DNA of 27,009 nt from a virus (taxonomy: Duplodnaviria; Caudoviricetes): positions 1 through 27,009 of IMG/VR virus record IMGVR_UViG_3300042350_000102; one strand, given 5' to 3'. Below the pieces are notes generated by a model that saw nothing but the letters and a program-made list of their open reading frames with translations, ran no database searches and had not been told where the DNA came from. This document shows, in pieces, positions 5,000 through 25,498 of this stretch (positions are counted from its first letter, which is position 1; each line of letters opens with the position of its first letter). Made by a program: the position numbers and the translations under genes.

Positions 5000-5150
5000 T
5001 CACAGCGCGGTAAGCCTCAATGGCCGTCTTTAAGTCACACTGTAAGTGCTGAATGCGGTCATCTTGCTCACACAACTTGGCGTAGGCTTCTTCGGCAAAC
5101 TTGGCCAAGTTAGCCTGGCTCCATGTAGAAAAGTCTGGTTTGTTACTCAC
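4983..5150 (-). CDS. Hypothetical protein, 55 aa (absent from the ORF track)
   Basis: MSNKPDFSTWSQANLAKFAEEAYAKLCEQDDRIQHLQCDLKTAIEAYRAVTKQTP. GTGA overlap with the upstream gene and an AGGAGA RBS. Confidence 0.65.
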   Translation of the reverse strand: MSNKPDFSTWSQANLAKFAEEAYAKLCEQDDRIQHLQCDLKTAIEAYRAVTKQTP

Positions 5151-5776
5151 GTTCTCTCCTTGATGTCATAGAACCAGTCGTCACCGGCAGACCACTTGCG
5201 CGTGCCGTCTACTGTCCACAGGCGCTGCGCCGCTTGGAAGTCAGGGAACTTTGTCTCGCTTGGTATCAGGCTCTGGTCATACCACAGGCATCGATTGTTT
5301 GGCTGGCAGGCAAACTGGCCATTGTCTAGCGCAATCCAATTAAACGACTTGTGTTCTTCGGCCTGCTCAGTAAAGCCCGTGTCTAAGTCCATGCCCTCGG
5401 CGCAGAAGTCCACCGTGAACAAGTAGCGCCCAAAGTGCCACTCTTTGTCTTTGCCGAGGAACTTGACGCCAAGGTTACGCAAGCCGATCTTCTCAATGAT
5501 TGTGAAGCGGTAGCCCATGCAATCCCACAGTTGCAACGTGTCAATCGGCAGATTGCCAGCGTCTTTGTGCCAGACGTAGGCGTGGATGGGCAGCTTGTCG
5601 TACAGGGCGCCGTAGTTGGGCAACAGCGACTCAATGCGAAACACTTGGCCACGCAAGGCTTTGAGGCTAACCCAGATGGCAGGCTCCAGTTCGCCGTGGC
5701 CCTTGTGGTCGTTGTACAAAAACTCGCGCTTAACAAAGCACTTCATGGGCGGCAGTGATGCCACGATATAACTCAT
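5147..5776 (-). CDS. Hypothetical phage protein, 209 aa
   Basis: AAGGAA RBS. Aromatic-rich globular sequence (LQLWDC, EEHKS, QPNNR) resembling a recurrent aquatic-phage family of unknown function. Confidence 0.8.
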   Translation of the reverse strand: MSYIVASLPPMKCFVKREFLYNDHKGHGELEPAIWVSLKALRGQVFRIESLLPNYGALYDKLPIHAYVWHKDAGNLPIDTLQLWDCMGYRFTIIEKIGLRNLGVKFLGKDKEWHFGRYLFTVDFCAEGMDLDTGFTEQAEEHKSFNWIALDNGQFACQPNNRCLWYDQSLIPSETKFPDFQAAQRLWTVDGTRKWSAGDDWFYDIKERT

Positions 5777-9480: not shown

Positions 9481-9987
9481 TCAGCCTTTCCGTGCCCATG
9501 CGGGTGCTTTGGACTTGGCGGCCTCTTGCTCGGCTGTTGGCCATGCAGGCGTGTCAGCTGCGGGTGTTGGTGCAGCAGCTGGTGCGCTGAAACCACCGGC
9601 AGACTCATAGCTTTTAATGTTGTTGCTGGCCTTGTACTGGCCTTGTGCCTCACGCACAGTCACACTGATGCGAACTGGCTTGAAGTGCAGGGCGGCAGTG
9701 TCCATCAACTTAATCACGTTCACAGCGTGGCAAAGCGCAGACAACTGGCTTTGTGCAATGCGCTGGGTGTCTTCGTTACTGTGGCGAATGTTCAAGTTCT
9801 CCCAAACCTTACGGCCTTTGAACTGGCCATCCATGATTTCAAAAGTCAACTTCAAACCCTCACCGTTGCCAGACTTCAATGGCTGCACATCGGACTCGGT
9901 GATGTGTGCTAGGTATGTGCCAGCAGGCAGTGGGCCTGTAGATGCTTGGGGGGCGACTTGGGATGCGTCAAAATTAAACTGAGCCAT
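9481..9987 (-). CDS. Single-stranded DNA-binding protein, DUF669-like
   Basis: PLPAGTY, LKLTFEI..G.FKGRKVWENLN motifs and an Ala/Pro tail ending PAW. Adjacent to the Sak4-like ATPase. Confidence 0.8.
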   Translation of the reverse strand: MAQFNFDASQVAPQASTGPLPAGTYLAHITESDVQPLKSGNGEGLKLTFEIMDGQFKGRKVWENLNIRHSNEDTQRIAQSQLSALCHAVNVIKLMDTAALHFKPVRISVTVREAQGQYKASNNIKSYESAGGFSAPAAAPTPAADTPAWPTAEQEAAKSKAPAWARKG

Positions 9988-10026
9988 GATAAATTTCCTA
10001 AAAAGTTAAGTTACGAACTGGGGTGA

Positions 10027-10773
10027 TCAAGACTGCGCTTGGGTAAGCGCTGCTTGGAATGCCGTCCAGTCAAGCGGCATATTCTGAAGGCCAAAGCGGT
10101 TACCACCGCAATGAGCCGGATGTGGTTCAACGTGCAAGATGCGCTCACCAGTGGTGGTGGCCTTGGTTTCTTTCTTAGAAAACCCTGCGTCTGTCTTGCT
10201 CGTAAAGATGCGGTAGCCTGCGTAGCCAATGACATCAGCCCATTCTTGCACCAAGCCAGCGGCCTTGTCGTGCAGTTTTAGGACATGGCTGTCATAGCCC
10301 TCAGTCAACGGGTCTTCAATGCGCTTGATCTTGTCGTGAGCAATCAAAATGATGCCCATGCCCTTGGCAGAGCGCAAGACCTCAAGGCCAGAGAGCAAGT
10401 TGCGCCATTCCTCGGCGGCGGCCACATAGCCCTTACCAAAGCCTGGCTGCTCGATGTTCTTCCAGTTGTTCTGCTTGCACACATACTCTTGGATCATTGG
10501 CTCTAACCAGTCAAGCGAGTCAATAAACAAGGTCTGAAAGTCATGGTTTTGGTTGATCAGCGTGTCGATGGCCGCATAGACTTCGGGCAGACTGGACGCC
10601 AGAGGGAAGGCGTTTGCGTCAACTGCGTCAGCGCCGTCTTCGGTCAGGATGCCAATGGCGTTGGGCGCCATGGCCGCGAAGGTTGTCTTGCCAATCTTGC
10701 CTTGGCCAACCACAACAATCTTGGGTGAGCGTACACGTTTAGTCTTTGAGATGGAGGATAGATCGAATGCCAT
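10027..10773 (-). CDS. AAA_24 ATPase, Sak4-like single-strand annealing protein
   Basis: Walker A GQGKIGKTT, Walker B LFIDSLDWLE, ILIAH. Classic linkage to an SSB and an exonuclease. Confidence 0.85.
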   Translation of the reverse strand: MAFDLSSISKTKRVRSPKIVVVGQGKIGKTTFAAMAPNAIGILTEDGADAVDANAFPLASSLPEVYAAIDTLINQNHDFQTLFIDSLDWLEPMIQEYVCKQNNWKNIEQPGFGKGYVAAAEEWRNLLSGLEVLRSAKGMGIILIAHDKIKRIEDPLTEGYDSHVLKLHDKAAGLVQEWADVIGYAGYRIFTSKTDAGFSKKETKATTTGERILHVEPHPAHCGGNRFGLQNMPLDWTAFQAALTQAQS

Positions 10774-10774
10774 G

Positions 10775-11143
10775 TTAGTCTTTCAGTTCAATAGATGGTT
10801 TTGCGGGTTTGCTAGTGATGAACACGGCAGCCTTGTTGTAGGACGCTGGGTCAATTTCGGATAGTTGTCGGAGGTAAGCCAAGTTAACTTCGGCTTTCCA
10901 TCTAAATGCACGTTGGGCGTTGTCAGGCAGATCGTCATAGTCGGCGGCCAAGCGGTCAGTATCAACTGAACGGTTGAGCTTCCATGTAATGCTGAAGTCT
11001 TCGTCATTGTGCGTGCCTTCATTGCTCTCAGGCTTGGCAAACTGCTCGGTGATCAAGCCCTCAATGCGCAGGCGCTCGGCCTTGGCTTCGTTCTCGGCCA
11101 ATTTAGCCTGGCGCAGCTGTTCTACCAAATTAGAGATCGTCAT
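10775..11143 (-). CDS. Hypothetical protein in the recombination module
   Basis: ATG 11143 after GAGGA. N-terminal coiled coil and a C-terminal ITSKPAKPSI motif typical of genes preceding Sak4-like ATPases. Confidence 0.75.
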   Translation of the reverse strand: MTISNLVEQLRQAKLAENEAKAERLRIEGLITEQFAKPESNEGTHNDEDFSITWKLNRSVDTDRLAADYDDLPDNAQRAFRWKAEVNLAYLRQLSEIDPASYNKAAVFITSKPAKPSIELKD

Positions 11144-11660
11144 TTTTAAAGTCCTCAAGTGCTGTGGTTGTGATGTGGTCTACAAGGTACTGCAAGAGCA
11201 AGTGGCCAATGTCAACGTCAGTGTTTCTAACGTAAGCGTTGACCAGTTCAATATTCTCAGATGTGCCAGGCTCATTGAGTAAGCCATAGCTGTCGCGTGA
11301 GCCTTCTTCGTCTGGCGTGTACTCTAAGAAGCAAACCAGATCAACACCTTCAAGTTCGCACTCGTACTGGGTAAGCCCTTTGGGGCAGGCGGGTGTCAGC
11401 CCAACCCATGTGCGCTGTGGTGGGGTGGTGTAGAGTGGTTGGTTGTGAACACTGTCTTTTATGATTGGTTTAGTCACATACACCCAATCGCTACCTGTCC
11501 CTTGTGGGAACTTTGAAACCCATGCTCTCCACGCCACAGGCTCCTGTTCTGGCTGTTCCAAGGCTTTAATCAATGCCTCACAAACAACGTATTCGGGCGT
11601 ATTAGGTGAATGAATACCCATGCCAACTTGTGCTAGTTCAATCAATTTGTCTTTAGTCAT
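11130..11660 (-). CDS. Hypothetical protein, apparent fusion of two micro-ORF modules
   Basis: N-half has QPEQEPVAW..PLYTTPPQRTWVGLT. C-half is acidic (PACPKGLTQYECELEGVDLVCFLEY). Confidence 0.7.
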   Translation of the reverse strand: MTKDKLIELAQVGMGIHSPNTPEYVVCEALIKALEQPEQEPVAWRAWVSKFPQGTGSDWVYVTKPIIKDSVHNQPLYTTPPQRTWVGLTPACPKGLTQYECELEGVDLVCFLEYTPDEEGSRDSYGLLNEPGTSENIELVNAYVRNTDVDIGHLLLQYLVDHITTTALEDFKNDDL

Positions 11661-11878
11661 GCTTGTCCCCTAATAATTTCAGCAGGCTCATGCGGGTCGT
11701 AAAACCCAATGCCCTTATCAAGTTTGTCAAACACCTTTGCCAAACGCTCACGCTCATGCTCCGCTACTAGCTTGGCAAAGATTTCAAGGTGCAATAAAGC
11801 AGACGGATGAAATGGTTTTCCTTCTTCATCTATGCCATACGCCTTGTTTGCCATGCGAATAATGTCTTCTTTGTTCAT
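11657..11878 (-). CDS. Hypothetical protein, 73 aa
   Basis: EDIIRMA..LE.FAKLVAEHERE..IIRGQA pattern. ATGA overlaps on both sides. Confidence 0.75.
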   Translation of the reverse strand: MNKEDIIRMANKAYGIDEEGKPFHPSALLHLEIFAKLVAEHERERLAKVFDKLDKGIGFYDPHEPAEIIRGQA

Positions 11879-11970
11879 AGCGGTGCATCCTCAAAGTTGT
11901 CAGGGTTGAACTTGGGCTGACGTTTGTTGTTGTGCTTGGGGTTTGGGAATGGTGGGAATGGCCAAGTCAT
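11875..11970 (-). CDS. Micro-ORF, 31 aa
   Basis: MTWPFPPFPNPKHNNKRQPKFNPDNFEDAPL. ATGA overlaps at both ends. Confidence 0.65.
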   Translation of the reverse strand: MTWPFPPFPNPKHNNKRQPKFNPDNFEDAPL

Positions 11971-12110
11971 GCTGACCACCATGCAACGAGTAAGACGGCC
12001 ATGCCAACGCCAATGGCAATGGCGACAATGAAATCAATGACTGCTTCGCCACGGGCGTTCAGCTTGGCGTTCTTGACTTCGGGGTAGTGAAAGTATTTGC
12101 TGTGTTTCAT
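11967..12110 (-). CDS. Micro membrane protein, 47 aa
   Basis: MKHSKYFHYPEVKNAKLNARGEAVIDFIVAIAIGVGMAVLLVAWWSA. C-terminal TM and an ATGA overlap. Confidence 0.7.
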   Translation of the reverse strand: MKHSKYFHYPEVKNAKLNARGEAVIDFIVAIAIGVGMAVLLVAWWSA

Positions 12111-12125
12111 GTTGTGCTTTCTATG

Positions 12126-12139
12126 GGGGCCGAGGCCCC
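12126..12139 (-). other. GC-rich intergenic hairpin (mRNA stabiliser or processing signal)
   Basis: GGGGC-CTCG-GCCCC on the minus strand between two early genes. No U-tract. Confidence 0.55.
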
Positions 12140-12145
12140 GTTGGT

Positions 12146-12328
12146 TTAGATTGTGAATTCGTTGTTAATGACTGCTTTTTTGGCATCTTTTAAACGCAAG
12201 CAAGACCAGCGAAATTTGCCGTCAACATGAATTTCCCAGCTTGAAGACAATGTGTTGCAGCGGAAACCATAATCCTGAACACGAACGATGGTGACGTTGC
12301 CTTGGGTAAAAACTGTTTTGCGGTTCAT
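12146..12328 (-). CDS. Hypothetical protein, 60 aa
   Basis: TAAGGAG RBS. In the early operon. Confidence 0.75.
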   Translation of the reverse strand: MNRKTVFTQGNVTIVRVQDYGFRCNTLSSSWEIHVDGKFRWSCLRLKDAKKAVINNEFTI

Positions 12329-12340
12329 GTTGTTTGCTCC

Positions 12341-12601
12341 TTAAACCCGTGAAGATTGTGTGCCAACCAATTCGCCATCCATAACCATGAAAGTAAGAGT
12401 CTTGGCAATGTTGAGGGTTTGGCGTGCGCGTTCTGTGTCGTTAAAAGACATGAGGTGTTGAGCGTCTGACATCAAGCCAGCGATTACCATGTTGGCGCCA
12501 GTGAATTGGTATGTGATAGATTCTTTGACTGACTCAATGTATGAGTCGATGTCTTCGAAACCATACATTGCTACGTTGCGGCTAGTTTGTGTTGCGTTCA
12601 T
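12341..12601 (-). CDS. Hypothetical protein, first gene of the leftward operon
   Basis: Start moved to ATG 12601 (AAGGAAACGAAATG). The longer track start would run through the operator region. Confidence 0.75.
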   Translation of the reverse strand: MNATQTSRNVAMYGFEDIDSYIESVKESITYQFTGANMVIAGLMSDAQHLMSFNDTERARQTLNIAKTLTFMVMDGELVGTQSSRV

Positions 12602-12764: not shown

Positions 12765-12775
12765 CTTTGCGTCCT

Positions 12776-12991
12776 ATGAACACACAAATACCCCCAGATG
12801 AGCGCCGACAACTGGCAGAAAAAGTTGGCATAAACGAGCAATACCTCTACCAATGCCTCACCGGCAGACGTGAGATGTCAGCATGGGAGGCCGTGAGAGT
12901 GGAGCAGGAAAGCCAAGGGCGGCTCACTCGCAAAATGGTGTGCCAGGGCAGCTGGCAGTCTATTTGGCCTGAGTTGGTGGAGACAACGTGA
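12776..12991 (+). CDS. Cro/YdaS-like HTH regulator
   Basis: RRQLAEKVGINEQYLYQCLTGRR helix-turn-helix and W..IWPEL C-terminus. First gene of the rightward operon. Confidence 0.85.
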   Translation: MNTQIPPDERRQLAEKVGINEQYLYQCLTGRREMSAWEAVRVEQESQGRLTRKMVCQGSWQSIWPELVETT

Positions 12992-13721
12992 ATGAGTTGG
13001 CTCTTTTCGCGGGCGCTGGTGGAGGAATACTCGGAGGCCATTTGCTCGGATGGCGAACAGTCTGTGCCGTTGAATGGGAGCAATACCCCGCAAGCGTACT
13101 GTGCGCCAGACAAAATGACGGGCTTCTCCCGCCTTTCCCGATTTGGGATGACGTACAAACCTTTGACGGAAAGCCGTGGCGAGGAATTGTTGATGTCGTA
13201 TCTGGCGGCTTTCCATGCCAAGACATCTCAGCCGCGGGGGGGGGGGGGGAATTGATGGCGAAAGATCAGGAATGTGGCGAGAAATGGCGCGGATCATTCA
13301 CGAAGTACAGCCTGGATTCGTTTTCGTGGAAAACTCACCAATGCTCACTTCTAGGGGACTTGGAAGAGTTCTCGGAGACTTGGCCAAAATGGGGTTTGAT
13401 GCGAAATGGGGAGTGTTGGGAGGCGAAGATGTTGGGGCCGTTCATAGAAGAGACAGAATTTGGATTGTCGCTTCCAACGATAGTCAAATCAGACTCAAAT
13501 GCGACATTAAAAAACAGATTCCTAAATTCACGCCATTTCCGTGGGGCAAAGATGTCAGAGGGATTGAGGATTTGCGAAACAGATCCGACCTCAGTCCATC
13601 CATCATTTGGCGAAAAGACTATGGGGTGGCCGACTATGTGGACCGGGTTAGCGCCATTGGCAACGGCCAAATTCCAAGAGTGGCAGCAACAGCATGGACA
13701 ATACTCAGTGAAAGAATTTAA
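12988..13721 (+). CDS. C5 cytosine DNA methyltransferase, catalytic (alpha) frame, frameshifted at the G14 tract
   Basis: Motifs I (LFAGAGG) and IV (GGFPCQDIS) are in frame 12988. Motifs VI (ENS), VIII (HRRDRIWIV) and X (GNGQIP) are in the 13215-13721 frame. One extra G joins them into 244 aa. Confidence 0.85.
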
Positions 13722-13728
13722 TGACTAA
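12992..13728 (+). CDS. Overlapping +1-frame polypeptide, candidate methyltransferase beta subunit, frameshifted at the same tract
   Basis: ORF 12992-13255 plus the 3' part of the 12988-13728 frame form one 245-aa ORF with one extra G. It carries motif IX-like VHPSFGEKTMGWPTMWT, which the alpha frame lacks. Confidence 0.65.
13236..13249 (+). repeat. Poly-G homopolymer (G14)
   Basis: GCCGC-G14-AATTGAT, directly after catalytic motif IV. Confidence 0.95.
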
Positions 13729-15811
13729 CCTAACAACAATATTCCCTAACGGCTTTGCGGCAGCCACAGAAAGCCAAGACCTGATCAACCCAGAGGAAGG
13801 GTTCAGAAGGCATTGTGAGGCTGCTGGCCTGCTGATCAAAGACCAGATCATTGCTGATGGTGAGATACACCGTGTGGCGCATGTGTCGAGCAAGAAGGGT
13901 GCGCTAGACGGCTGGTATATCTTGCACACCAGTGGCAAGGTTCCTGTGGGCATTGCAGGCTGTTGGAAAGAGCCAGTCTTTGAAGCCAAATGGGTGGCAG
14001 ATACTGGCCGTGCCATGTCGTTCACTGAGCGCTTTGAACATGACAAGTGGGTAGCTGAAGTTAAGGCCAAGAAAGATGCGGATCGGTTGGCCAGTCAGGC
14101 GGTGGCCGCAGAGCGTGCAGAGGATGAGGTGGGAACGTATGCGGATGCAAGCAATGACCATCCTTACCTTGTGCGCAAGCATGTTGGCGCCAACGGGATC
14201 AAGATTGACCGTGCAGGCAGACTGGTTGTGCCGGTGATCAATCAGGCAGGCGAGATATTGAGTTACCAAACCATTGATGCAGATGGCAACAAGCGGTTCC
14301 TAAAAGGCGGCAAGATCGAGGGCGGGTTTTACGAACTGCGTGGTAACCGTAAGATCGTGTTTATTGGTGAGGGCTTTGCCACTTGCGCATCGATCCATGA
14401 AGCGACTGGCTACACGGTGTTAGTGGCGTTTGACTGCGGCAACTTGGCCAAGGTGGCCAAGAGCGCCAAAGAAATGTTCCCAGGCTCAAAGATTGTGATT
14501 GGCGCAGACAATGACCAGTTTACGGAAGGCAACCCTGGCGTAACGAAGGGCCGTGCAGCTGCGGCGCTGGTGTTTGGTGAGATTGTGTACCCATCGTTTT
14601 CAGATTCGGACATGGTGGACAACAAGCCCACAGACTTCAATGATTTGCATTGCCTGCAAGGTTTGGATGCCGTCAAAGAGCAGATTGAGCGAGTGGCAGG
14701 GCCAATGAAAGACAAACTGGCGTTTGAGTTTAGTCGGGCAGACAGCTTGCAACTCACGCAAATCAAGTGGATCGTGGATGATTACATCGAAGCAGACTCG
14801 CTGGCGCAAGTGTTCGGTGACCCAGGCGGTGGTAAATCGTTTGTGTCCATCGACATTGCCTGCTGTGTGGCCACAGGCCGTGCCTGGCATGGCCATGAGG
14901 TTAAGCAAGGCAGCGTGTTTTACATTGCCGGTGAAGGCCACAATGGCTTGGCACGGCGTTTCAAGGCATGGCAGATTGGCAACGGCACGAGCTTGGACGG
15001 TGCGCCACTGTACAAGAGCCATAGGGCGGCGCAGCTGTATGACGCGACTGAGGCTGCGGTGGTGGCTGAAAGCATTAAAGAGCTGTCAGCGCAGGCCGGC
15101 ACGGTTCCATCACTGATCATCATTGACACCTTGGCGCGTAACCATGGCGGCGATGAAAACAGCACCCAAGACATGAATGCGTTCATTCAGCACCTTGACA
15201 CCTACTTGCGCCAACCATGGAACTGTTGCGTTTTGGTGGTGCATCACTCCGGCGTGGCTGACAAGGATCGTAGCCGTGGATCAACAGCCCTGAAGGGCGC
15301 CTTGGATGCGGAATATCGATGCCAGCTAGATAGCGGGACAAAGACCATAGCGTTTGAGTCTAAGAAGATGAAGGATGCAGAGATGCCTGCGCCTAAGAAT
15401 TTTCAGATCACGCAAGTGGACTTGCCAATCCAAGACAAGCACGGTTTGGCGGTCAAGGGTGCGTACCTTACAGCCGTGGACATTAGCGGCCTAACCAGCT
15501 CAATCCAGAAGAAAACATACCTTGCAGGCAACCAAAGGAAGACCTTGGACTGCTTGGTGGCCATCCAAATGAGCCATGAAAAGAACGGCATTTTGGACTT
15601 GGTGACCTACGATGAGTGGCGCGAGTCGGCCAAAGAACATGGCATTAAATCCAACCGATTTAGGGAAGTTGTTGATAGCCTGGTCAAAAAGTTGTTGGTT
15701 TTGGAGGACTCTAGAGGTTACAGAACCAGACCTAATGTAGATGCTATTGTCGAACCGAAACTTACCGAATCGGTAACCGAATCGGCTAATTCGGTTGAAC
15801 CGAAACTATGA
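13721..15811 (+). CDS. Primase-helicase (TOPRIM plus AAA_25/RepA-like SF4 helicase)
   Basis: HPYL, IGEGFAT and GADND (TOPRIM). GDPGGGKS Walker A, LIIIDT Walker B, VVHH, RGSTAL. Confidence 0.92.
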   Translation: MTNLTTIFPNGFAAATESQDLINPEEGFRRHCEAAGLLIKDQIIADGEIHRVAHVSSKKGALDGWYILHTSGKVPVGIAGCWKEPVFEAKWVADTGRAMSFTERFEHDKWVAEVKAKKDADRLASQAVAAERAEDEVGTYADASNDHPYLVRKHVGANGIKIDRAGRLVVPVINQAGEILSYQTIDADGNKRFLKGGKIEGGFYELRGNRKIVFIGEGFATCASIHEATGYTVLVAFDCGNLAKVAKSAKEMFPGSKIVIGADNDQFTEGNPGVTKGRAAAALVFGEIVYPSFSDSDMVDNKPTDFNDLHCLQGLDAVKEQIERVAGPMKDKLAFEFSRADSLQLTQIKWIVDDYIEADSLAQVFGDPGGGKSFVSIDIACCVATGRAWHGHEVKQGSVFYIAGEGHNGLARRFKAWQIGNGTSLDGAPLYKSHRAAQLYDATEAAVVAESIKELSAQAGTVPSLIIIDTLARNHGGDENSTQDMNAFIQHLDTYLRQPWNCCVLVVHHSGVADKDRSRGSTALKGALDAEYRCQLDSGTKTIAFESKKMKDAEMPAPKNFQITQVDLPIQDKHGLAVKGAYLTAVDISGLTSSIQKKTYLAGNQRKTLDCLVAIQMSHEKNGILDLVTYDEWRESAKEHGIKSNRFREVVDSLVKKLLVLEDSRGYRTRPNVDAIVEPKLTESVTESANSVEPKL

Positions 15812-23977: not shown

Positions 23978-25498
23978 ATGGCATTAACCAAAGCAACTTA
24001 TTCCATGATTACTGGCGCAAGCATTAACGTGCTTGATTATGGCGCTACTGGCAATGGCACTACGGATGACACAACGGCAATTCAAGCCGCTGTAAACGCT
24101 GGCGTTGCACAAAATAAAGCGGTGTATTTTCCAAATGGAACTTACATCATTACTTCCACAATAAACTTACCAAACAACATTGCATTACTTGGTGAAACAC
24201 CAAGAAAAATTAACCAAAATATAAATACATACGGCACAATTATTAAAACAGCCGCTGACATCACAATGATGAAAACAACGGCTGTAATGCCAGCGTTTAC
24301 ATTTGGTATTCGAATTGAAAATATTTCATTTTGGGGTAATGGAAGCACTGGTTCTGCATTGACCATTGGTGATGACGCTGAAAATCATTTGTCTTTTGGT
24401 ATTACGCTACGCAACATTGACATTGAGTATGTTGGCAATGGCATTAAATTAAATGGCGCTGCTTATGTGACATATCTTGAAAATATCACAATGGCTGGTA
24501 CAGACCGAGCAGGAAGCTACGGGATTTGGTATAGGCGTTGCCAGATTGCAGAATGTCATGCAATGAAGATTGAAAACTTTGCCAATCTTTACTTTATCCA
24601 ATGGAGTAGTCACATTTCGCTTTACGATTGCTCTGCATCTTTCAATGTTCCTGCAATTGCAAACGGCAATAATTTGCTAAGAATTTATGGCAGCTACCAT
24701 TGCAACTTTTATGGTTGCGTTTGGGAAAATCTGGCTGATAGTTCTGGGTCTGTTATTGAAGTAAACATTTTTGAATTTTTTAGCGATCCAGCAAAATCAA
24801 CAAGTAATCGTTTTTACAATTGCATTTGGAATGGAATTGGCACTAGCGCTTGCCGTGTAAAAATTGGAAGTCTTGTTCCGCTTGGGCCTGCGGTTGAAAA
24901 AACATACTTTGAAAACTGCACCTTTCTTAAATTCGGTACTGTTGCAACCGATTTTGCATTAGATAACGCACGGGGTACGGTGCTAAATCAATGCTACTCA
25001 ATTACTGGTTATGATGGTTCTGACGATGACCTGCCTTTTATGACTGGTGTTGATGCCGAGATGCAGATTTACAGCATTAACGGCATACAGTTTAACGGTG
25101 CGGAATCAACATTCTCGCCAGCTTTGACAAGCGTAAGCGGAGGGGGTGGTGTTGGTGTTGCATATTCGGCCCAAGTTGGAAATTGCTACAAGGTTGACAA
25201 GACTGTTACTTTTAACATTCGCATGACGCTCAGTAACAAAGGTGCAAATACTGGTAATGTTGCGCTTGGTAATTTGCCATTTGTTGCTGATGGTGGCGCG
25301 TCTGACACATACCCTGTAACAATTATTGGCACATCACTTGCCGCTGGTGTTACGCAACCCATTGTCGGCTACATCATTGGCGCATCGCAACAGATAAATT
25401 TGTTTAAGTTTGTGACTGGAAGCATTGGTCCATTGCTTGATACCGACTTAACGAACACAAGCAGCATCTTAATTTCTGGAACTTACATTGCGGTATAA
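23978..25498 (+). CDS. Tailspike/depolymerase with a pectate-lyase-like beta-helix
   Basis: NVLDYGATGNGTTDDTTAIQAA..VYFPNGTYII motif and Asn/Cys ladder repeats (FYGC, FYNC, FENC). Confidence 0.85.
   Translation: MALTKATYSMITGASINVLDYGATGNGTTDDTTAIQAAVNAGVAQNKAVYFPNGTYIITSTINLPNNIALLGETPRKINQNINTYGTIIKTAADITMMKTTAVMPAFTFGIRIENISFWGNGSTGSALTIGDDAENHLSFGITLRNIDIEYVGNGIKLNGAAYVTYLENITMAGTDRAGSYGIWYRRCQIAECHAMKIENFANLYFIQWSSHISLYDCSASFNVPAIANGNNLLRIYGSYHCNFYGCVWENLADSSGSVIEVNIFEFFSDPAKSTSNRFYNCIWNGIGTSACRVKIGSLVPLGPAVEKTYFENCTFLKFGTVATDFALDNARGTVLNQCYSITGYDGSDDDLPFMTGVDAEMQIYSINGIQFNGAESTFSPALTSVSGGGGVGVAYSAQVGNCYKVDKTVTFNIRMTLSNKGANTGNVALGNLPFVADGGASDTYPVTIIGTSLAAGVTQPIVGYIIGASQQINLFKFVTGSIGPLLDTDLTNTSSILISGTYIAV

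Follow-up and report, generated by a model that had tools for sequence, protein, structure and literature searches.

A run of guanines in the catalytic loop of a phage gene probably forms a contingency locus that, through slipped-strand phase variation, toggles a predicted two-subunit C5 cytosine methyltransferase, the two chains of which (here called alpha and beta) would be read from overlapping frames of the same DNA. Because the length of the tract differs between samples of the same phage, it is likely to turn both predicted enzyme halves on and off together, and reversibly. The locus is a candidate switch, and the gene that holds it would determine how the phage methylates its own DNA.

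Results

The methylase gene occupies a variable slot in a tailed-phage genome

The window (the whole 27,009-nucleotide stretch of DNA that was analysed) is a complete contig of a tailed phage with a P22-like portal, terminases, a helicase, a recombinase and lysis genes (Pfam, PHROG). Its sequence is found mainly in lake-water metagenomes, with 11 metagenome runs holding at least half of the window's words, and the nearest relative of its terminase comes from a freshwater-spring phage (77%). Outside the locus studied here, positions 5147-5776 on the minus strand strongly match PHROG 3704, which carries the label ferredoxin / auxiliary metabolic gene (E 5e-73), and give no Pfam match, and positions 23978-25498 on the plus strand encode a pectate-lyase-like protein (PF12708, E 7e-19) that is probably a tailspike depolymerase. 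The methylase locus sits between a cro-like gene and a primase-helicase gene, and comprises the following features.

12767-12991, plus strand: Cro/YdaS-like HTH gene (Pfam YdaS, E 7.5e-5, under the curated cut-off)
12979-12982, plus strand: Shine-Dalgarno-like GGAG, 5 nt upstream of the alpha GTG and 9 nt upstream of the beta ATG
12988-13235, plus strand: N-half of predicted alpha, motifs I-IV, catalytic PCQ at 13213-13221 (Pfam PF00145, E 8e-10; PHROG 363)
12989-12991, plus strand: stop TGA of the Cro/YdaS-like gene, overlapping the alpha GTG and directly 5' of the beta ATG (sequence GTGAATG)
12992-13255, plus strand: N-half of predicted beta, which stops at 13255 in the G14 allele (87 aa)
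13236-13249, plus strand: G14 tract in catalytic-loop codons, 18 nt past the PCQ codons
13248-13721, plus strand: C-half of predicted alpha, motif VI ENS at 13329-13337, motifs VIII and X (Pfam PF00145, E 8e-13)
13250-13728, plus strand: C-half of predicted beta, reached from the 12988 start when the tract is G14, with its stop 8 nt into the primase gene
13594-13641, plus strand: motif-IX-like block VHPSFGEKTMGWPTMW in beta (family consensus LNPxWxEWLMGWPLGW)
13721-15811, plus strand: Toprim/AAA_25 primase-helicase (Pfam AAA_25, E 8e-38; Toprim_3)

Relatives of the phage in 7 of 8 metagenome runs join position 12982 to 13720 across a 7-nt filler and so cleanly lack the methylase gene, which is therefore accessory. 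Two more joints (12985-13742 and 12986-13748) also skip it, with different fillers, and the slot between the cro-like and primase genes is a variable module. Elsewhere in the window, contigs in metagenomes X5 and X8 join across a 2.5-kb early region (9843-12399), again with a 7-nt filler, so that relatives may lack this region as well.

Tract length decides which halves of two overlapping frames are joined

The tract is the sole G/C run longer than six in the 27,009 bases, the next longest being G6, which agrees with the preliminary description of this DNA: it had reported no comparable run in the window and had placed the G14 just after motif IV, a position that we confirm. Two start codons lie 4 nt apart within GTGAATG, the GTG of alpha at 12988 and the ATG of beta at 12992, and the GGAG upstream would serve as a ribosome site common to both. 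Both frames are whole at G12, G15 and G18, and other lengths cross them. At G15, alpha runs for 244 aa from its GTG to a stop at 13721 and carries motifs IV, VI, VIII and X, while the +1 frame, beta, runs for 245 aa from its ATG and ends at 13728. At G14, the length in the window, the GTG start crosses frame to yield a 246-aa chimera that keeps PCQ and lacks ENS, RDRIW and GNGQ, and with them motifs VI, VIII and X, and the ATG start yields an 87-aa stub with its stop at 13255. Our frame bookkeeping thus reproduces both the pair of whole frames at G15 and the chimera at G14 lacking ENS, VIII and X, as first described. When the tract is G13 or G16, translation from the GTG ends after 88-89 aa, and translation from the ATG passes into the catalytic C-half to give a beta-N/alpha-C product of 242-243 aa. 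The tract is, in other words, a coding simple repeat whose length change shifts the frame, as is expected of a contingency locus.

Both methylase stops overlap the start of the primase gene: the TAA of alpha shares bases with its ATG (TAATG), and the overlap for beta is ATGACTAA. The primase-helicase is likely, from this arrangement, to be translationally coupled to both methylase frames. At every tract length one of the two starts reads through to a stop overlapping the primase start, so switching off would likely spare translational coupling to the replication gene. In 61 of 67 homologues with a run, and in 75 of 90 without one, a downstream ORF begins no more than 15 nt from the stops; the spared coupling is a property of the family and is not particular to its run-bearing members.

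Since the crossed products are full length (246 and 242-243 aa), we weighed the possibility that the locus is a switch with more than two states, in which the chimeras (alphaN-betaC at G14, betaN-alphaC at G13 or G16) remain functional, e.g. by complementing as fragments to give altered or partial methylation, or serve some separate purpose. In the G14 allele the alpha C-half might be made from an ATG at 13215, the accessible text of PMC3404938 describes C5 methylases that complement as fragments, and some clusters of near-identical sequences are mostly off-frame. Against this, the break that each chimera makes in the Rossmann-type catalytic domain comes immediately past motif IV, and the best complementation splits reported in that same text fall after motif VIII; we regard functional chimeras as quite improbable. 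A broader version, in which one slippery run is a multi-state recombiner that arose many times and at several sites in a family of about 30,000 clusters, its slips swapping C-halves with replication spared and its crossed products conferring a distinct methylation state in place of OFF, is somewhat easier to entertain and still rather unlikely.

Alpha resembles C5 methyltransferases and beta resembles a second subunit

Alpha is likely to be a C5 cytosine DNA methyltransferase and is the predicted catalytic chain. The features that characterise PF00145 (motifs I-VIII with PC and ENV/ENS, and motif X) are found together in the G15 product and not in the G14 product as given. The alpha family profile aligns to M.HhaI (E 1e-20), and a structural model of the homologue L002 matches M.HaeIII/M.HhaI (E 2.5e-13, pLDDT 77). 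The commonest loop in homologues is AAGKGAGIDGERSG, the one that the preliminary description had named for related phage enzymes. In the window, the loop lysine aligned with Lys89 of M.HhaI, a residue that contacts DNA, is replaced by the run, so the ON allele might be weak; glycine at the Lys89-aligned site is also encoded by non-run codons, in 22 of 110 cases. Vibrio phage 1.091.O (L323, L505) carries a dual-frame C5 methylase and, about 1 kb downstream, a second C5 methylase of 303 aa.

The preliminary description offered no identity for the +1 frame; its reading as a second subunit is our addition. Among 144 in-frame homologues the 5' part of beta is open in 143 and the 3' part in 141, where synonymous shuffles predict 37 and 2.8, and the third (+2) frame is open in none of the same homologues. 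Beta is accordingly a second conserved ORF inside the catalytic gene. Cultured phages of Salmonella and Vibrio, in which alpha alone is annotated, also have an uninterrupted beta frame, and the beta profile matches 29,879 clusters at 50% identity. Some of these matches (P0006, P0083, P0116, P0119 and P0126) are 450-550 aa long and may contain long variable regions or fusions. In the Stenotrophomonas phage S72 (L322, 907-1671) the 5' part of beta contains stops, and an internal beta start, closer to the layout of the two-polypeptide methylase M.EcoHK31I, would therefore be expected there.

The C-half of beta matches PHROG 1008, 'DNA methyltransferase' (E 5e-8), and the best conserved block of beta, LNPxWxEWLMGWPLGW, is spaced as is motif IX in single-chain enzymes, e.g. 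LTPRECARLQGYPDSY; alpha appears to have no motif-IX-like block. The MG[WF]P block was the best match for canonical motif IX, taken from five enzymes, in 63 beta chains and 2 alpha chains out of 92 each; the match exceeded the 99th shuffle percentile for only 4 of the 92 beta chains. An HMM of the beta block searched against eight proteins gave no significant match to motif IX, searches with beta gave no Pfam or PDB match, and beta modelled alone was of low confidence (pLDDT 52) with no fold match. Taken together, our comparisons suggest that beta is likely a second methylase subunit in the M.EcoHK31I layout.

Tract length varies in the same phage and frame varies across the family

Contigs that bridge the tract from 13198 to 13352/13361 with no other difference from the window read G13 (X1), G15 (X2), G14 (X3) and G15 (X4). 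These contigs, one of which may be the window's own source, come from four studies (2020-2024), and the readings are of contigs, not reads, with a depth of 22-29 on the bridging contigs. Tract lengths in the same phage come from X1-X4 only, as in X5-X8 no indel is recorded and no listed piece bridges the run, and the exact allele of the window had no match in the searched JGI metagenome records. At the level of contigs there is therefore length polymorphism among near-identical genomes, in both directions. The preliminary description had held that with an assembly artefact the reads would uniformly show G15 or a non-homopolymer sequence; the four contigs give neither. Sister phages in the same runs as X1-X4 have an ordinary A-rich loop that is read normally, so the instrument does read this loop. 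We had also considered a single-sample assembly artefact or a two-colour poly-G tail, which is ruled out, as both flanks are bridged in four studies and the sister A-rich loops are normal.

Across the family, with duplicates removed, 77 of 104 run-bearing genes are in frame and 27 are out of frame (15 at -1 and 12 at +1), compared with 0 of 73 run-free genes (Fisher p 1.6e-7; the family p-values overstate independence because the records are related and partly duplicated). A scan of JGI metagenomes, a set that overlaps the viral one, gave 107 distinct records, of which 70 are in frame, 19 at -1, 11 at +1 and 7 unscored. More than one tract length occurs in 13 of 49 near-identical clusters, among which some records are the same contig filed twice, and one cluster holds all three frame states. 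Twenty of 31 off-frame alleles are fully covered, and 18 of these 20 are otherwise intact in both frames. Three of four GTDB matches were parsed (L317-L319, MAG contigs), all of them off-frame at +1; L319 lies within a 414-kb Gallionella contig and is possibly a prophage. In L081, L106, L357 and L396 the alpha C-half ends early or the two frames end far apart, which suggests a second frame change in the variable region.

These data bear directly on the simplest alternative, namely that the run is real, stable and in frame (G15) and that the off-frame alleles were created by errors of sequencing or assembly in so long a G homopolymer. All tract-length data are from contigs, a few of which end in or just past the run (L103, L146 and L169; 2 of 120 in JGI), and in X1 depth is lower on the bridging contigs than beside them (22 vs 40). 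Library stutter mostly shortens runs, yet +1 alleles are nearly as frequent as -1 alleles (12:15 and 11:19). Errors would also have to account for an off-frame consensus in about a quarter of records, G9-G10 runs included, and for near-identical clusters that are mostly OFF, and they leave unexplained both the preference for pure G (88 of 110) and the concentration of runs in one gene. We consider error an unlikely explanation and a variable tract the better one.

Codon choice and recurrence suggest possible selection for mutability

Aligning homologues, as the preliminary description had proposed, shows that poly-G recurs at the same loop and is scattered over the tree. A run of at least eight is found at the loop in 11 of 66 distinct homologues with a readable loop (among the best 80). 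Of 119 viral stretches sampled for the general loop, 8 carry the run, and pattern-search estimates put the totals at about 200 run-bearing viral stretches among some 4,600. Where the loop reads Gly-Gly-Gly, in any codons, it is pure G in 88 of 110 cases, against 1.2% expected from the Gly codons of the same genes, and the motif I Gly-Gly-Gly of those genes is pure G in none. Other G/C runs of at least eight were counted in 803 kb, and 14 of 20 fall inside the methylase gene, which makes up 27% of the bases (p 8e-5).

To follow the history of the run, a FastTree phylogeny was built from 170 alpha chains, for which motif I, a complete C-half and standard spacing were required, with the loop left out. 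The run needs 36 changes among the 170 rows, at least 14 of them forced by well-supported branches, compared with 55 when shuffled; tract states thus cluster on the tree, where recombination could spread one allele and where gains, losses and recombination are indistinguishable. The closest kin of the window, L001 and L002 (88%), lack the run. Runs also recur at other sites of the gene, at the ILGG codons after motif I (36 stretches, L444-L479) and in motif I itself (23 stretches, L480-L502), where they measure G7-G17 and likewise include off-frame alleles. The loop run was absent from all 44 scored genes that had a 5' run, but only about two would be expected at the family rate, and we do not claim that run sites exclude one another.

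The recurrence could instead mark a mutational hotspot with no selected function, an accessory gene that drifts G-rich, slips and heads for loss. There are relatives entirely without the gene, the loop is free of runs in about 95% of the family, and 2 of the 20 fully covered OFF alleles carry a second disruption. Decay of this kind is nevertheless hard to reconcile with three quarters of run-bearing alleles being in frame, with both frames being intact in 18 of 20 OFF alleles, and with runs that arise repeatedly at several sites of the gene and rarely in flanking DNA. We think it decidedly improbable that the run lacks a selected function.

Discussion

The tract had been described as a switch acting on both frames, and this reading is now supported by length polymorphism in the same phage, by the off-frame alleles (27 of 104 run-bearing against 0 of 73 run-free genes) and by the codon bias (88 of 110). 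In the mechanism that we propose, alpha and beta would assemble as in M.EcoHK31I and methylate the phage DNA. Both chains would be whole at G15, and at G14 or G13/G16 each start would be joined to the wrong C-half or to a stop. Polymerase slippage during replication would reset the length of the tract, giving ON and OFF genomes. Methylated DNA is helped against methyl-blocked restriction and harmed by methyl-dependent nucleases; ON genomes may thus resist host restriction enzymes that are blocked by 5mC, and OFF genomes may escape 5mC-dependent (Type IV) nucleases. Progeny would then be a mixture of methylated and unmethylated genomes, which we infer to reflect a trade-off between restriction-modification and Type IV systems, and the locus allows the idea to be tested that phages hedge against restriction of both kinds, methyl-blocked and methyl-dependent. 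An assembled methylase of this kind that looks 'frameshifted' need not be an error or a pseudogene, and the second frame, usually unannotated, is probably half of the enzyme.

Phage contingency loci and a dual-frame C5 enzyme are each known, and their combination was not found in the literature searched. No publication on a repeat-switched dual-frame phage C5 methylase was found; subscription journals and bioRxiv supplements lay outside the search, and the SSR tables of Gomez et al., in one such supplement, may list methylases. PMC8788219 does not mention methylases.

The closest enzyme by layout is M.EcoHK31I, a two-polypeptide C5 methyltransferase that recognises YGGCCR (PMC2836561, PMC3404938). 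As described in the accessible text of these papers, its second polypeptide likewise lies in another frame within the catalytic gene, its alpha comprising motifs I-VIII plus X, its beta motif IX, a likeness that is one of description; that text mentions no repeat tract. The window's beta, by contrast, begins only 4 nt past the alpha start and equals alpha in length, and its methylase is phage-borne, with no cognate endonuclease seen.

Bacterial phasevarions, in which repeat slippage in Type III mod genes switches a DNA methyltransferase on and off (as summarised in PMC3711429), are chromosomal, mostly m6A and defined by the host regulon that they regulate, and we do not class the locus among them. 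Among phages, a poly-G in the methylase of Bordetella phage BPP-1 is cited in the accessible text of Gomez, Barrick and Waters (bioRxiv 10.1101/2025.10.21.683753), and in sequence records the tract of this gene, bpm, is G8, G9 and G10 in BPP-1, BIP-1 and BMP-1. As in the window, bpm is a phage DNA methylase whose G-run differs among sibling phages and which lies between a cro-like gene and a primase-helicase, although the window's primase showed no homology to BPP-1 bbp29. It differs in being an adenine (N6_N4) methylase read in a single frame, and its run falls at codon 195, late in the gene.

Gomez, Barrick and Waters introduced the name phage contingency loci in their 2025 preprint, the accessible text of which gives them as shown for two coliphage genes, T2 agt and T4 rIIA. 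T2 agt, as presented there, is similar in that homopolymer slippage toggles a DNA-modifying gene, with a trade-off between two restriction systems. The slippery repeats of agt are runs of A in a glucosyltransferase read in one frame; its frameshifts lie near 7e-4, and its switching was shown experimentally. The window has instead a long G-run in a predicted, dual-coded methylase, and off-frame consensus alleles make up about a quarter of those recorded. To these systems the present locus adds one phage at three tract lengths across four studies, together with codon-level signs of selection for mutability and repeated origins in a widespread natural candidate from environmental phages.
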